Sequence record: MT322327.1
From: Escherichia phage SSBS18_WS_10_728
Reading direction: 5' to 3' (one strand)
DNA length: 64,000 nt
Within the stretch, counting starts at the first letter, position 1; every line of letters begins with the position of its first letter. Positions 26,584-57,026 of this stretch are shown here, piece by piece. Below the pieces are notes generated by a model. That model was not told where the DNA came from. It searched no databases and worked only from the letters and a program-made list of their open reading frames with translations. The position numbers and the translations under genes are program-made.

Positions 26584-26660
26584 CCAGACCAAGTTTTAAA
26601 TTTTTTCAAAATTAAATTGGCTTGAAAATATCATACGTGCTTGCTGAATTTGGTCTTCTG
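26584..26660 (-). ncRNA. Y-like hairpin element, copy 2 (no tRNA-like domain)
   Basis: Same closing stem with compensatory change (CCAGACCA ... TGGTCTTCTG) and conserved CAGCAA motif next to the stem. Confidence 0.3.
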
Positions 26661-26748
26661 CTCCTTTAAAGAACACTCGTAAGAACCCTTTAAGGGAGGG
26701 GCTAAAATAGCCCTCTCAAAACATCATCTTGAAATACTTATTATAATT

Positions 26749-26826
26749 TGGCGGTTACGAAGGGATTTGAACCCTCATCATCTCCCGTGACAGGGGAGTA
26801 TTTTAACCAGATTAAACTACATAACC
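26749..26826 (-). tRNA. tRNA-Asp (anticodon GTC)
   Basis: Acceptor GGTTATG/CGTAACC, anticodon stem-loop CTCCC-CTGTCAC-GGGAG, T-arm GAGGG-TTCAAAT-CCCTT, G73. Confidence 0.7.
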
Positions 26827-26832
26827 TTTATT

Positions 26833-26920
26833 TGGTGTGCCGTGTAGGAGTCGAACCTACCGAGTCTCAATGACAAGGGATTTACAGTCCCCACCGCTAC
26901 CATCTACGGGATAACGACAC
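26833..26920 (-). tRNA. tRNA-Tyr (anticodon GTA), type II
   Basis: Acceptor GTGTCGT/ACGGCAC, anticodon stem-loop GGGGA-CTGTAAA-TCCCT, long variable arm, T-arm GTAGG-TTCGACT-CCTAC, A73. Confidence 0.65.
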
Positions 26921-26929
26921 ATTTAAATT

Positions 26930-27006
26930 TGGCGGTTAGTCAGGGATTCGAACCCTGTGCCATTCGCTTAACAGGCGACCGCACATACCTTATGTGCTTC
27001 CTAACC
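26930..27006 (-). tRNA. tRNA-Asn (anticodon GTT)
   Basis: D stem GCAC/GTGC, anticodon loop CTGTTAA, T-arm CAGGG-TTCGAAT-CCCTG, G73. Confidence 0.7.
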
Positions 27007-27037
27007 TTAATACATTGCCAGACCGTGTTTTTTCTTT

Positions 27038-27077
27038 TATCCGCAAAAAGTATTTTGTTGCTGAATACGGTCTTCTG
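27038..27077 (-). ncRNA. Y-like hairpin element, copy 3 (short)
   Basis: CCAGACCG ... TTGCTGAATACGGTCTTCTG with AT-rich interior, between tRNA-Asn and the second tRNA-Met. Confidence 0.3.
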
Positions 27078-27083
27078 CAAAAT

Positions 27084-27160
27084 TGGAGGCGGGTGCAGGA
27101 GTCGAACCTGCCGATACCATGCTAATGAGACATGTGAGACGCCCTTTCTCTATACCCGCA
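27084..27160 (-). tRNA. tRNA-Met (anticodon CAT), second copy; unpaired 1-72 hints at initiator
   Basis: Anticodon stem-loop CATGT-CTCATTA-GCATG, D stem GAGA/TCTC, T-arm GCAGG-TTCGACT-CCTGC; first acceptor pair mismatched. Confidence 0.55.
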
Positions 27161-27171
27161 ATTCTTAATGA

Positions 27172-27244
27172 CCAGACCAAATCTCTTCTTTGTCCGATTT
27201 ACCTTCAGATGAATAAGATTAAGTTTGCTGTAATTGGTCTTCTG
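27172..27244 (-). ncRNA. Y-like hairpin element, copy 4
   Basis: CCAGACCA ... TTGCTGTAATTGGTCTTCTG; covariation with copies 1 and 3 preserves pairing. Confidence 0.3.
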
Positions 27245-27251
27245 TCAAAAC

Positions 27252-27329
27252 TGGCGTTCCAGAAGGGATTTGAACCCTCAAATATCCACTTTGAAAGAGT
27301 GGTGACTTTACCATTTTGTCCACTGGAAC
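27252..27329 (-). tRNA. tRNA-Glu (anticodon TTC)
   Basis: Acceptor GTTCCAG/CTGGAAC, anticodon stem-loop CCACT-CTTTCAA-AGTGG, T-arm GAGGG-TTCAAAT-CCCTT, G73. Confidence 0.7.
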
Positions 27330-27336
27330 ATTAATT

Positions 27337-27413
27337 TGGTCTCTGTTGGAGGACTTGAACCTCCGGCCTTACCGCCCCAAACGGAACGCTCTACCAAGCT
27401 GAGCTAAACAGAG
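27337..27413 (-). tRNA. tRNA-Pro (anticodon TGG)
   Basis: Acceptor CTCTGTT/AACAGAG, D-arm GCTCAGCTTGGTAGAGC, anticodon loop TTTGGGG, T-arm GGAGG-TTCAAGT-CCTCC, A73. Confidence 0.7.
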
Positions 27414-44858: not shown

Positions 44859-45374
44859 TTTTGGATTCTCCAGTTTAGGAAGTGGGCTGGCTTGCCCGTC
44901 TGATGCAAATATTAAATAACCATAGTCAAAGAGTCAATAGGAATTTTAAAAATATTTTTGCAAAAAAAAAAAAAACTGTAATGAAACGGGCGCACGCGAC
45001 TACCACAAAACAGAACTACAATCAAGAATTATTTTTCAATCCGCTACAAATTTTTCTGTTGACTTTTATTTTCAGATGTGGTAGCCTTGTGAGAAATGGC
45101 GACATCCCCACCTGCACCCACCTACCTGCACAATTCTAAAATGATTTTTCTTGCCCGACCTGAGCGGGGTCTGCACGTTTTGAAAATAAAAAAGCTCTTT
45201 GGAGATTATCTGCACAGTTTGAAAATGAATTTTCTCTTTGGAGTTCAAAATTTTCTCTACAGATTTCTCTACAGAACTCTACCTGCACAATTCTAAAATG
45301 AAAAAGCCCTCCTTACCTGAAAAATTTACCAGATAAGAAAGGCTTAGTCTATTGTGAATATTATACAGATTTTC
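44859..45374. promoter_or_regulatory. repeat-rich intergenic control region
   Basis: A14 homopolymer at 44962-44975; 21 bp direct repeat ACCTGCACAATTCTAAAATGA at ~45124 and ~45280; CTGCAC, TTTGAAAAT, CTCTTTGGAG, TTCTCTACAGA short repeats. Confidence 0.45.
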
Positions 45375-46160
45375 TTAGTTCTTTGCGCCTAAAAAGGTAA
45401 CTTCTGGTGAAGAGAAAATTTCCTCAACATTCTCATCAGTTCTTGCATAGATATATGTGTCTGCATCACTGCCAAATGTTACTGCAATTCTGTGATTGCT
45501 CTTCGACAGGTGGGTAACTAGAGCGTTACTTAGAGACATCTTTTCAACCGGAGGGTTACTTTGATGTATCTCGCCTTTTCTTCGTCTGAAGAGGGTAACT
45601 GCATCATCAGTGAACGTTACTACACCTGCAAAGTATTCTGGTTCACAGTAGTTCTTCCAACCTGAGCGTAACTTGTGGTACATCTCCCCTTCGTAGACAT
45701 ACAGATACACATCTACACTCTTCATCACCTGATTAATGATAACGGTAACGGCTTGAGGGTCCAGTCCACCGATACCTGCACCAATCATAGGTAACCCAAC
45801 TTTCTTCAACTGATTCACTTCACAGTATCTGTTAAACTGTTTCAAAGATGACTCTAAAGCACTGTATCGAGCATCTTTACCAGTCTTAAGCTGAGTGTAA
45901 AGGTTAGCTATACGGCCTTGTTTTAAACGTGCTACAGAGAAATTGCCTAGTAAATTCTCACAGGGCTTGTGGCCTATTCCACCTGCATACAGATAAACTT
46001 CTGTATCAGTCTCATATGCTTTTGGGTAAAGTTTAGAAATCTTGTCAGCGATACCTGCACCCATTAAGTTCATACAGTTGCAACCGTGACCGATGACGTC
46101 AAACTTACCTTTATCAAATGCTGCAAAGATATCACCATTGATAATTTTTACAATACCCAT
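45375..46160 (-). CDS. macrodomain protein, TARG1/DarG-like
   Basis: 261 aa; N-terminal GDIF...DVIGHGCNCMNLMGAGIA resembles TARG1/OARD1-type macrodomain signature. Confidence 0.55.
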   Translation of the reverse strand: MGIVKIINGDIFAAFDKGKFDVIGHGCNCMNLMGAGIADKISKLYPKAYETDTEVYLYAGGIGHKPCENLLGNFSVARLKQGRIANLYTQLKTGKDARYSALESSLKQFNRYCEVNQLKKVGLPMIGAGIGGLDPQAVTVIINQVMKSVDVYLYVYEGEMYHKLRSGWKNYCEPEYFAGVVTFTDDAVTLFRRRKGEIHQSNPPVEKMSLSNALVTHLSKSNHRIAVTFGSDADTYIYARTDENVEEIFSSPEVTFLGAKN

Positions 46161-46397
46161 TTAGCATCTCTCCCAAGATTCTTTATCTTCTGAAGGTTTT
46201 ACACGTTGCCCTTCGTGGTCTACCCAGATACATCCACAACCTTCACAGATTACTGGCATTGCATAGCCAGCTTTAAAGTCATCTTCAGTGATAAGACCTT
46301 TTAAGTCCCCTGTATCACGTCCGAACATTTCGATAGCACAGTCTTTGCAGAAATCAGCCATGAATAATTGCCTCTTGAGTGATGATACCTTTACCAC
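46161..46397 (-). CDS. small Cys-rich zinc-ribbon-like protein
   Basis: 78 aa; CKDC ... CEGCGC cysteine pairs. Confidence 0.4.
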   Translation of the reverse strand: MVKVSSLKRQLFMADFCKDCAIEMFGRDTGDLKGLITEDDFKAGYAMPVICEGCGCIWVDHEGQRVKPSEDKESWERC

Positions 46398-48492: not shown

Positions 48493-49188
48493 TCAATGTT
48501 TTACTAACATAGTTTTAATGTGCGGAAGGATTCTGTTTACCTTCTGAACATTCTTCTCTGTATCTTCTATAAAACATACTATATTAAAGTAAGGAAGAAT
48601 GCAAGACTGAATCATCCTGACTTTCAAACTTTCTGCATTTATAGAGTTAGTTCCAAAACCACGCATAAAAAGCATGTAATCGTGCTCTATGTTATGCCTT
48701 AAAAACATCTCAGTAGGTATTCTCTGAGATTCACCTCTCGCTGTCAAGAGTCCAATGGCAGCGTGATTAGCAATTGCATCAATAATACTAAAAACATACG
48801 TTGGTTTTGCTCTTACAGAGTCAAGAAGATTAGTGTACTGTGAGAATGACCCATCAGTCAATTCCGTTGAGCAATCTTCGTGATTAAAATTTGTAAGAAC
48901 ACCATCAATATCTGCTAAGATGAGGTTACCTTTTTCTACAAGGTCTTTATTGACTATGACTAAACTGTCACGTCTTACACCTATAGATTGTCCAGTCTCT
49001 TTGTCCACAACGTTCACAATTGGTTCTGATGTGTGGAACTCTTCAAGTGAACATACAACCTCTCTTGCAGTGTCTTCAAAATCCCTGCACTGTTCTGGAG
49101 TCCATATACAGGAATCAAGACCTAACTCATGAGGATGCAAGTCGTAAGCATGACACAGCACTTCATCAGACTTTCTTAATTTTTTCAT
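48493..49188 (-). CDS. HAD-superfamily phosphatase (putative nucleotidase)
   Basis: 231 aa; HAD motif I LILADIDGVLTN. Confidence 0.5.
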   Translation of the reverse strand: MKKLRKSDEVLCHAYDLHPHELGLDSCIWTPEQCRDFEDTAREVVCSLEEFHTSEPIVNVVDKETGQSIGVRRDSLVIVNKDLVEKGNLILADIDGVLTNFNHEDCSTELTDGSFSQYTNLLDSVRAKPTYVFSIIDAIANHAAIGLLTARGESQRIPTEMFLRHNIEHDYMLFMRGFGTNSINAESLKVRMIQSCILPYFNIVCFIEDTEKNVQKVNRILPHIKTMLVKH

Positions 49189-54295: not shown

Positions 54296-56095
54296 TTAAA
54301 GCTGCTTGTCAATATTATTTCGAATATCACCAAGAGTTGTGTAGCCGAACTGCTCAGAGTCGCTAAAGACCAAGCGTAAAGCACAAGCTGGGTGTTCAAG
54401 TGCATCTGCAAAGCTTTGGAACCCATAGCCATCTACAGCTTTCAGATTTTCACCATCCCACATAGGTGCTACACCACCAAAAGCAGACTTCTTAACACCG
54501 CTGTCTGTTTTAGGGTCTTTTGCAAGCATAATCTCTTTACCACCAATGCTTGCCAGAGTTGCTTTAACAGCAAATGCAAAGGTGTCACGAGTCATGTACT
54601 GGTAAGTGTAAGAACCTACACCAAACACTACGTTAGAGCTTGCAAAACCCATTTCATACAAACGTTTCAGGATTTCGTTTGCACGTTCCAACGTGATAGA
54701 GTCACCATAAATAAGCCCGATATGCTCATCCAGTACTTTAAAGCCTTTAGAGTTGATAGTTCCTCCAAAGATATTATACAGTGTCTTGATAGCTCCATCA
54801 ATCTCCGCTACAGGACGTGTGACAACGTTTGCAGAACCAACCATATAAGCGTTTTTCAACAGCACTGTATCAGCAACTTCAAAGTCTTCTCTGTCAACAA
54901 CCATTTCGTAGCCTTCTGACAGTAGCCACCCAGCAATACCATAGTTGATGTTTTCAAGCTTCATGTTCAGAACAGCATTCAACATTGTGTCGCTGGCTTC
55001 CAGCTTGCTTAGGTGTTCGTAATAAGCCTTTTTAGCACACTCTAAGTGGATTGCTTTATAGCCTGTGACAATATGTACAGGGTCTCCAGAGTCAGGACGA
55101 ATTACCAGTTTGCCATCACGTTCCATAATCTCTTTACGGAGTTCTGGGAGTATCACTGATACAGTTCTCCAGAAGTTATAAGTATCTGAAACAACACTTG
55201 CAATACCAGTTGGGTAAGTTTCTGTTAAGAAACGACGGAAGGTTTGTAACTCACCTTTAAAGCGTCTTTCTTCTTCAATCAACTCATTCCCACCTTCCCA
55301 AGCAATGTTTGCACACATGACAGAGTGCTCGGTGGCTGGTACAGAACTACCAATATCAGAGATTGGGTAGGACTGCCCATAGATGCGTTTAGCTGTATAC
55401 ACAGCAGGGAAGCTATCAGTCCCTTTAAAGCTGGTTAAGTGACCTACAGCGTTAAATGCGTCATCAGTAAAGCCGGACATACCACGCATAGCAAAATCAT
55501 GGCACTGATAAGGTAAATGTAAGTCATTGTCACAAGTAAGGTCAGACCACTTCTTACAGATACGTTTGTAGTGCAATGCAATAGTTGCAATGGTACAAGC
55601 CTTCCAAATCTCAGCAGAGAAAGCATCTTCCAGATACCCCGCTACCCAATGGAAACCTGAAACAGTGTTCTGGAAGACAACCATTGGTACACGCATAGGA
55701 ACAACTGTGCCTTCTTCTACAGCGTATACTTCAACTGGTAGATAACCTAAGTCGTGAAGTGCTTCCCAATGTTCTCGACCAATAGCATCTTTACCCAGAA
55801 CACCGTTCATGACTTCTAAGATTTCGTCAATTGCTTCTTTTTTGTCACGTTCAAAGAAGGTGGCGTTCCAGTGGTCTATCAAGTAATCTTTAACAAAACG
55901 TTGAATACCAAAAGCTACTACACCATCAATTGCTAAAGGGCTGTTAAACCATTTATCACTACGTGGTGTCAGGTTAAACATCAAGTACTCTGTCGCACTA
56001 GGATACTGATAAATATGGCCAGACTTGTAAGCATCCGCGTTTAAACCTGCTGGTACTGCATAAAGTGATTTAGTCATCTTTTTAATCTCTCTCAA
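54296..56095 (-). CDS. nicotinamide phosphoribosyltransferase-like protein (NAMPT/NadV family; possibly Namat)
   Basis: 599 aa; NAMPT-family character along full length; adjacent to Prs-like gene. Confidence 0.75.
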   Translation of the reverse strand: MREIKKMTKSLYAVPAGLNADAYKSGHIYQYPSATEYLMFNLTPRSDKWFNSPLAIDGVVAFGIQRFVKDYLIDHWNATFFERDKKEAIDEILEVMNGVLGKDAIGREHWEALHDLGYLPVEVYAVEEGTVVPMRVPMVVFQNTVSGFHWVAGYLEDAFSAEIWKACTIATIALHYKRICKKWSDLTCDNDLHLPYQCHDFAMRGMSGFTDDAFNAVGHLTSFKGTDSFPAVYTAKRIYGQSYPISDIGSSVPATEHSVMCANIAWEGGNELIEEERRFKGELQTFRRFLTETYPTGIASVVSDTYNFWRTVSVILPELRKEIMERDGKLVIRPDSGDPVHIVTGYKAIHLECAKKAYYEHLSKLEASDTMLNAVLNMKLENINYGIAGWLLSEGYEMVVDREDFEVADTVLLKNAYMVGSANVVTRPVAEIDGAIKTLYNIFGGTINSKGFKVLDEHIGLIYGDSITLERANEILKRLYEMGFASSNVVFGVGSYTYQYMTRDTFAFAVKATLASIGGKEIMLAKDPKTDSGVKKSAFGGVAPMWDGENLKAVDGYGFQSFADALEHPACALRLVFSDSEQFGYTTLGDIRNNIDKQL

Positions 56096-56123
56096 AATGG
56101 GGCTTGTAAGCCCCTATAAAGTT

Positions 56124-57026
56124 TCAATCAATGGTTACTACAGTAACTTGTGCATAATGTGTTAAGCCACGGTCTTTAGCTTCCCCTAAAGAGTTTGTAG
56201 TGTAGATATGGTCAATACCATTGTCAAGTAAGTTTTCAACCCCTTTAGAGAAAATGCCATGAGTTACATAGAGTTCCACACGTTTTGCACCTGCTTCACG
56301 AAGATGTTTAGCTGCCTCTATGAAGGTTCGACCACCATCACAAATATCATCCAGAATCATGACGGTTTTATCTGTCAAATCAACATCATCAAGGATTCGC
56401 ATACCAGTAATTTCACCAGTCTTAAGGTTGCGTACTTTAGACATTGTGATATATGGTTTATCCACCTCTTTAGCAGTCTCTTCAGTCTTCTTAGCTGCAC
56501 CTGCATCTGGGGCTACCAAGAAATCAATGCGTGGGTCACTTGCAAAGTGTGCTGCTACATCTTTTTGCTTCATGCTCTGAAAGCACTTAAATAAGTTTTC
56601 TGCAACATTACTGTGAGGGTCAAGAGCACATACTGCATCAAAACCCATTGCATTAACGAGGTTGGAAAAAGCTTTCAGTGCTGCTGAATCACCTTTGAAC
56701 ATATGGCGGTCATATCGAGCATTCGGTAAGAACCCGAAAACAACGGTTTTCATCGCTGATTTGTATGGAACAAGGCTGTCAACGGCATCCTTAGCCAAAG
56801 CTAATGCAAACAGTGTATCTTTATCATATCCCTGCACAGTCAATATAACATTGTCAATCTTACCAGCATTACGCTCAGTAAACTTAACAAAATCTTCAGA
56901 GAAGTTTCCACCAATTTCTCCAGATGGGAATTGGATGATATTAAATTTTTCTGTGTGGAAGAATTTCTCTTGTGCGGTGACAACGGCTTCAATAATAGTT
57001 TTCATAGCTCTCTCTCTCTTAATCAA
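56124..57026 (-). CDS. ribose-phosphate pyrophosphokinase-like protein (Prs family; possibly Adps)
   Basis: 300 aa; PRPP-binding loop VMILDDICDGGRTF. Confidence 0.75.
   Translation of the reverse strand: MIKRERAMKTIIEAVVTAQEKFFHTEKFNIIQFPSGEIGGNFSEDFVKFTERNAGKIDNVILTVQGYDKDTLFALALAKDAVDSLVPYKSAMKTVVFGFLPNARYDRHMFKGDSAALKAFSNLVNAMGFDAVCALDPHSNVAENLFKCFQSMKQKDVAAHFASDPRIDFLVAPDAGAAKKTEETAKEVDKPYITMSKVRNLKTGEITGMRILDDVDLTDKTVMILDDICDGGRTFIEAAKHLREAGAKRVELYVTHGIFSKGVENLLDNGIDHIYTTNSLGEAKDRGLTHYAQVTVVTID

Follow-up and report, generated by a model that had tools for sequence, protein, structure and literature searches.

DarTG systems are widespread toxin-antitoxin defences against phages, and the orphan antitoxin-like erasers AdfN and AdfM have, to our knowledge, been described only in 2024-2026 and so far only from T-even and chimallivirus phages. 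Among macrodomain proteins, human TARG1 (OARD1) is primarily a protein (Glu/Asp) ADP-ribosylhydrolase and yeast Poa1p is an ADP-ribose-1''-phosphate phosphatase, and we take K80 of the DarG antitoxin to correspond to K84 of TARG1. DarG catalysis depends critically on K80 according to PMC11543638, and the same paper credits TARG1, by citation, with also removing DarT2-type DNA ADP-ribosylation. The anti-DarTG2 role of T4 Tk.4 is already known from a 2025 preprint (bioRxiv 10.1101/2025.11.20.689424), which reports that a T4 transposon library passaged on DarTG2-expressing E. coli gave tk.4 as the single significant hit, that a clean tk.4 deletion sensitises T4 to DarTG2, and that the gene was renamed adfM. 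The AdfM of PhiKZ (gp104) strips DarT2-made ADP-ribose from a DNA oligonucleotide in vitro and neutralises DarT2 toxicity, and its N23A substitution lowers activity, according to PMC13309987 (Cell Rep 2026).

We describe here a macrodomain gene on the minus strand of a 64,000-nucleotide stretch of phage DNA (the window), which is a Felix O1-type myovirus of the genus Felixounavirus. Over 6 kb around the gene, the sequence shares 92-96% identity with many Felixounavirus genomes, and orthologues of the protein across Felixounavirus genomes are 93-98% identical (tblastn). A reading of this DNA made earlier from the letters alone (the sequence-only reading) had noticed a macrodomain-like open reading frame at 45375-46160, and that observation is confirmed; the product's first residues in the ORF list, MGIVKIINGDIFAAFDKGKFDVIGHGCNCMNLMGAGIADKI, are identical to those quoted there, and the product matches PHROG 335 over residues 1-260 (E=1e-110). 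The features of the locus are as follows.

46168..46174, minus strand: Shine-Dalgarno-like GGGAGAG, 7 nt 5' of the ATG (read from the sequence)
45375..46160, minus strand: complete macrodomain gene, 261 codons plus a TAA stop at 45375-45377 (ORF list, PHROG 335, orthologues)
45690..46160, minus strand: macrodomain, residues 1-157, a beta-alpha-beta sandwich with ADP-ribose-binding loops G34-A38 and G127-G132
46077..46079, minus strand: codon of N28, equivalent to the conserved DarG Asn (TVN) and to PhiKZ AdfM N23 (alignment; invariant in 31 family members)
45891..45893, minus strand: codon of Q90 (CAG) in the invariant NLYTQ motif, at the site of the catalytic Lys of TARG1 (K84) and DarG (K80) (HMMER to 4j5r, MAFFT)
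45660..45689, minus strand: linker helix, residues 158-167 (DSSP of the AlphaFold2 model)
45378..45659, minus strand: orphan C-terminal beta-rich domain, residues 168-261, six strands and a short helix
45304..45345, minus strand: terminator-like hairpin followed by a T-run, 30 nt past the stop codon (consensus scan)

The stop codon of the upstream gene (46161-46163) directly adjoins the ATG of the macrodomain gene. This neighbour (46161-46397, minus strand) encodes a 78-residue Cys-rich protein with CxxC ... CxxCxC (PHROG 2210), and the arrangement suggests translational coupling of the two genes; we rejected it as a conserved partner, as it is not kept beside divergent members of the macrodomain family. 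The downstream hairpin has a 17-pair stem with six GC pairs, and one such structure was found as against 1.3 expected in shuffled sequence, such that it is suggestive of a terminator by position only. Beyond the stop codon lies a gap of about 500 bp (44860-45375) without a long ORF, which carries three to four direct copies of a 23-35 nt motif, with CTACCTGCACAATTCTAAAATGA at 45122 and 45279 and variants at 45170 and 45206. It is absent from the rest of the window, with 0.01 matches expected by chance, and could be an array of regulatory or promoter elements. We rejected an RNA element in the gap, an Rfam scan of which returned only sub-threshold noise from miRNA families.

The N-terminal half of the protein is a macrodomain. 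Pfam Macro (PF01661) matches residues 25-141 with 32 bits against a gathering cutoff of 22 (E=1.3e-7, profile positions 2-117 of 118), the three-layer alpha/beta/alpha macro fold is present, and an AlphaFold2 model of the full protein built from a 31-sequence alignment has a pLDDT of 92.3 and a pTM of 0.89. The loops M33-G34-A35-G36-I37-A38 and G127-A128-G129-I130-G131-G132 align to those of TARG1 and DarG and are invariant or nearly so in the family. When the PDB was searched with a profile of 19 full-length family members (HMMER), human TARG1/OARD1 (4j5r) ranked first with E=3e-11, followed by DarG of M. tuberculosis (4e-9) and of T. aquaticus (2e-7) and then by Poa1p. DarG is also the best-scoring family both in NCBIfam (45 bits, E=8e-12) and in PADLOC (PDLC02990, 46 bits, E about 1e-12), and the nearest solved structures and profiles are those of DarG, TARG1 and Poa1p. 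The domain belongs to this group as a distinct phage clade, and is neither a TARG1 orthologue nor a DarG orthologue. The assignment to the TARG1/DarG macrodomain class made in the sequence-only reading is borne out by these structures and family models. Orthologues are already annotated publicly as 'macro domain-containing protein', 'phosphatase' or 'O-acetyl-ADP-ribose deacetylase', of which the 'phosphatase' names are inherited domain labels rather than the outcome of tests.

The protein matches T4 Tk.4 at 34.8% identity over residues 3-157 (tblastn, E=4e-15), under the annotated Tk.4 CDS, and the PHROG match together with similarity across the whole macrodomain makes it a member of the phage Tk.4/AdfM-type clade (PHROG 335). 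The clade departs from DarG and TARG1 at the catalytic lysine: LITK84 of TARG1 is aligned with LYTQ90, and the DarG K80 column is also Q90 (HMMER to 4j5r; MAFFT). NLYTQ is found in all 32 Tk.4-like database proteins, whereas FPTK is found in 116 of the 120 closest DarG relatives, and Gln stands at the Lys position in each of eight diverse phage relatives sampled (T4-like Straboviridae of Acinetobacter and Salmonella, an Otagovirus of Pseudomonas, a phi92-like phage, an E. coli jumbo phage, a Microbacterium actinophage, and Ounavirinae of Erwinia and Pectobacterium). T4 and PP01 carry both HGCNC and NLYTQ; in distant relatives these read H-[GQC]-[ACV]-N-[CAT] and NAYTQ, NLYGQ, NIASQ or NCITQ. 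The clade signature N-x-[YAI]-[TGS]-Q, with Gln for the DarG/TARG1 Lys, and the HGCNC of the closer relatives are both present in the protein described here. Two relatives deserve mention on their own account. In Salmonella phage STML-198 (NC_027344.1, 95630-96398) the Tk.4-like gene is apparently disrupted, with its halves in different frames, the NLYTQ segment duplicated and only the 3' part annotated as a CDS, which reflects either a pseudogene or a sequencing frameshift. Microbacterium phage Pumpernickel (locus L008, 130-582) has a Tk.4-like macrodomain with NIASQ whose GenBank label, 'ADP-ribosyltransferase', names the opposite activity and is likely a mis-annotation.

Eight residues (H25, N28, C29, D52, N86, Y88, T89, and Q90) are strictly invariant in 31 family members that are only 30-40% identical, and the invariance of these polar pocket residues argues for an enzyme over a passive binder. 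Because the residue at the lysine position is an invariant Gln throughout the phage clade, catalysis there, as read from the alignments, cannot use the lysine mechanism of DarG and TARG1, and the eight residues presumably form a different, lysine-independent active site. The second loop, PMIGAGIGGLD134, is three residues longer than PRIGCGLD of TARG1, and in the ungapped HMMER alignment D125 of TARG1 lies opposite a Gly; D134 does not vary within the two-domain family, yet T4 Tk.4 lacks it. The GAGIGGL loop has the length and glycine pattern of DarG, unlike TARG1, and the first loop, HGCNC...GAGIA, most resembles that of yeast Poa1p (alignment to 6lfq/6lfu, residues 17-56). The sequence-only reading had implied a catalytic machinery shared with TARG1 and DarG, and had named the absence of their conserved catalytic residues as what would speak against it; for the key lysine this is what both alignments give, with invariant Q90 in its place, and that part of the reading is not supported. 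T4 Tk.4/AdfM has the same Gln, however, and the finding therefore lowers the case for a TARG1/DarG-type enzyme but not that for a protein that counters DarT2. The absence of the lysine from the T4-type AdfM clade is not raised in the sections consulted of the two AdfM papers (bioRxiv 10.1101/2025.11.20.689424; PMC13309987), and a T4-type AdfM clade without the DarG/TARG1 catalytic lysine would appear to be new.

The most likely function of the protein would be counter-defence against thymidine ADP-ribosylation of phage DNA of the DarT2 type. Specifically, we propose, with about even confidence, that in the Ounavirinae lineage it is the orthologue representing the T4 Tk.4/AdfM class and would remove DarT2-made ADP-ribose from phage DNA. 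A host DarT2-type toxin would attach ADP-ribose to single-stranded phage DNA (thymidine-N3-ADP-ribose), the macrodomain would bind the DNA-attached ADP-ribose and remove it, free ADP-ribose would be released and replicable DNA restored, and the phage would thereby escape the DarTG2 defence. Both the substrate and hydrolysis itself are inferred for this protein, the former from what the knockout does to T4 and from the biochemistry of PhiKZ AdfM. The anti-DarT role suggested in the sequence-only reading is supported at the level of homologues, through T4 Tk.4 genetics and PhiKZ gp104 biochemistry, and would reach the Felixounavirus protein through a homologue of about 34% identity; we found no usable literature link between Felixounavirus and DarTG. 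Several considerations count against the proposal: the T4 support is genetic, comes from a preprint and concerns a protein of about 34% identity, and enzymatic removal by the Gln-type clade is putative; the DarG-critical Lys is absent, and the DarG model scores 45 bits against a cutoff of 250; and the C-terminal domain, which shows neither similarity to the DarT-binding part of DarG nor a consistent charge, lends its proposed role no support.

The surroundings of the gene bear on what else it might do. It lies in a long minus-strand block of small genes, and among the ten flanking ORFs we found no DarT or other PADLOC defence component, the flanking PHROGs all being of unknown function; a toxin or defence-like neighbour was rejected on these grounds, and the gene is therefore an orphan antitoxin-like gene. 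The slot it occupies (rIIA-rIIB ... SLT-like ... HAD-PNKP-like ... macro) recurs, down to members of only 33% identity, in the loci we looked at (L012, L013, and in part Erwinia phage vEam_PM_6). The 231-residue protein 2.3 kb upstream in this conserved synteny (48493-49188, minus strand) is labelled 'polynucleotide kinase' (PHROG 3970) and has a DxDGV HAD-type motif; it has no Pfam match above threshold, its syntenic counterparts in relatives match HAD_PNKP weakly or faintly, and from its sequence it looks like a phosphatase-only PNKP relative. Further away, 26 tRNA genes that together serve most amino acids are clustered at 22385-27413 (minus strand), as is typical of Felix O1-like phages.

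At 54296-57026 (minus strand) are a Nampt-like ORF (599 residues; NAPRTase/NAMPT_N) and a Prs-like ORF (300 residues; Pribosyltran/Pribosyl_synth), a pair that corresponds to NARP1 (Namat plus Adps) of Felixounavirus Bas63, which was shown there to rebuild NAD+ from free ADP-ribose and nicotinamide; the public labels 'nicotinamide phosphoribosyltransferase' and 'ribose-phosphate pyrophosphokinase' are probably functionally misleading. The sequence-only reading had tied the macrodomain to this NAD module. The module is present and matches the ADP-ribose-consuming NARP1, but it lies 8-10 kb from the macrodomain gene with rIIA/rIIB and other genes between, and the tie is circumstantial. Since a macrodomain hydrolase would release free ADP-ribose, a metabolic link to NARP1 is conceivable.

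The protein could instead hydrolyse small-molecule ADP-ribose derivatives in the manner of Poa1p ('A1pp phosphatase') or of O-acetyl-ADP-ribose deacetylases, acting on ADPr-1''-phosphate, ADPr>p, OAADPr or ADPR-derived immune signals, with the free ADP-ribose feeding NARP1. The Poa1p-like HGCNC...GAGIA loop would be compatible with such a substrate and to that extent weighs against the DNA-directed reading. However, the sole experimental phenotype in the clade, that of T4 Tk.4, is DarTG2-specific, the 'phosphatase' names carry no weight of their own given their origin in a domain label, and no KptA/Tpt1-type or 2H gene (a source of Appr>p) was found among the neighbours tested. The separation from NARP1 by rIIA/rIIB, and the fact that NAD-depleting systems already yield free ADPR, further reduce the appeal of this alternative, which we regard as rather unlikely.

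The sequence-only reading had noted a C-terminal extension of about 110 residues without known function; an extension is present, and is now seen to be an orphan domain of about 100 residues confined to this phage lineage. Its six-stranded part (about residues 168-255) has a pLDDT of 84-93 in the full model and 78 when modelled alone, and in the AlphaFold2 model the domain packs rigidly on the macrodomain. P174 and G179 are invariant and Y236 nearly so, but mean pairwise identity is 30% in the C-domain compared with 58% in the macrodomain, such that the former diverges about twice as fast. Foldseek against a viral structure library returned only the family's own member in phage SUSP2, and an exhaustive hmmsearch of 1.84e9 (1.84 billion) representative proteins with the C-domain profile gave ten matches, none of them a C-domain outside the family: they are two-domain members, fragments (P0032 and P0037, which we rejected as independent C-domains) and a few retroelement or beta-repeat proteins with multiple short matching stretches (P0033, P0034, P0036, and P0038, treated as spurious). 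Both domains occur together only in phages of the Ounavirinae type, namely Felixounavirus, Mooglevirus, Suspvirus, the Wc4/Arno phages of Pectobacterium, and relatives from metagenomes. The Kolesnikvirus orthologue in Erwinia phage vEam_PM_6 (locus L004, 3998-4780; 260 residues) keeps the macrodomain and NLYTQ and has a C-terminal extension of about 100 residues that the C-domain profile does not recognise (E=0.2), through either extreme divergence or replacement by a different domain.

Identities proposed for the C-domain were rejected in turn. It is not the DarT-binding region of DarG as far as sequence goes, as neither DarG model aligns past the macrodomain half (positions 12-153 of 338 in NCBIfam and 14-146 of 329 in PADLOC) and no part of residues 160-261 is matched by either; the fold-search matches included no solved structure of that DarG region for comparison. 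A local hmmsearch of 120 DarG relatives was also empty, these being mostly macro-only or truncated and thus a weak test. No similarity was found to T4 tk.1, tk.2, tk.3 or vs that would make it a fusion with one of these, and a generic nucleic-acid binder is at odds with an inconsistent net charge (pI 4.6-9.5 across the family). We speculate that the likeliest role of the C-domain is that of a specificity or protein-binding module, for example for the DarT toxin or another host factor, and that it would then be functionally analogous, although not homologous, to the DarT-binding domain of DarG. A stronger version, which we consider decidedly unlikely, is that of a two-pronged anti-DarT weapon in which a lysine-independent eraser of thymidine-ADP-ribose is joined to a structurally novel C-domain that directly binds and blocks DarT2 or another host immune protein, convergent with the architecture of DarG; if true, an eraser would here be fused to a defence inhibitor with a new protein fold.

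A fast-evolving C-domain would also fit recognition of protein targets, and the protein could instead reverse ADP-ribosylation of protein or RNA, such as that made by host ART defences (for example CmdT-like toxins that target mRNA) or by ARTs of the phage or the host that modify components of transcription or translation. The best sequence-profile match, TARG1, acts primarily on protein, and macrodomains are versatile across substrates (PMC9503650). Nonetheless, the Lys of the catalytic Lys/Asp pair of TARG1 is not conserved, no ART gene was found among the neighbours tested, and the clade offers no experimental hint in this direction, the T4 screen having given only DarTG2 among the conditions reported; we consider this option improbable. 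Least probable is a non-catalytic reader or sponge, in which the Gln-type macrodomain binds ADP-ribosylated DNA or an ADPR signal uncleaved and the C-domain acts as effector or shield. The loss of the DarG-critical residue throughout the clade and an extra domain without enzymatic signature would suit it, but invariance of the eight pocket residues at such low overall identity is typical of active sites, T4 Tk.4 protects without a C-domain, and stoichiometric shielding of DNA lesions would not restore replication.

Removal of DarT2-made ADP-ribose from phage DNA, our preferred reading, would extend AdfM-type counter-defence to the Felix O1 lineage, which appears to be new, and the AdfM-type macrodomain is hereby extended to a group whose members include Salmonella and E. 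coli phages for diagnostics, biocontrol and therapy. The fusion of a fold-orphan, lineage-restricted and fast-evolving C-terminal domain to a macrodomain also appears to be new. Two questions are raised, namely the mechanism of a DarG-like macrodomain that lacks the DarG-critical lysine, and the contribution of the lineage-restricted orphan domain. The presence of NARP1 in the same genomes makes Felixounaviruses such as Bas63 tractable for studying cooperation between ADP-ribose erasure and NAD+ reconstitution.

The protein differs from each of the systems to which it is related. In bacterial DarG (NCBIfam NF048014; PDB 5m3i, 5m31, and 7omu) the catalytic K80 corresponds to Gln here, and the score of 45 bits is far below the equivalog cutoff of 250; the second region of DarG spans about 190 residues and binds DarT, whereas the second domain here is about 100 residues long, beta-rich and not alignable to it, and DarG sits with an adjacent DarT whereas this gene has no DarT neighbour. 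Human TARG1/OARD1 (PDB 4j5r and 2lgr) is the best PDB profile match and shares the H...MGAGIA spacing and a compact macrodomain of about 150 residues, but its K84 is replaced by Q90, its D125 loop is three residues shorter with D125 lacking an aligned counterpart, and its S35 is N28 here. Yeast Poa1p (PDB 6lfq) shares the first loop, H-x-C-N-C...G-x-G-I-A, although similarity is limited to residues 17-56, it has no second domain and it is a cellular enzyme of tRNA-splicing by-products. The DarG2-like macrodomains of PhiKZ (gp104) and other chimalliviruses are likewise orphans of the DarG structural class with the catalytic-site Asn (N23, equivalent to N28) and a GxGxGGL second loop; PhiKZ AdfM nevertheless keeps the 'FPTK' lysine, scores 138 bits on the DarG model compared with 45 here, is about 25% identical to the protein described here, and is a single-domain protein whose destination is the phage nucleus, into which it is imported. 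At 155 residues T4 Tk.4 likewise consists of one domain, whereas the protein here has an additional C-terminal domain of about 100 residues found only in Ounavirinae-type phages; the genomic slot in T4 is also different (vs-tk.4-tk.3), and the DarTG2 phenotype is that of the T4 gene. Even so, the two share the HGCNC, MG(A/S)G(I/V)A, NLYTQ, and PxIGAGI(G) motifs and about 34% identity over the whole macrodomain, and both are orphan genes that lie among small phage genes with no toxin partner.
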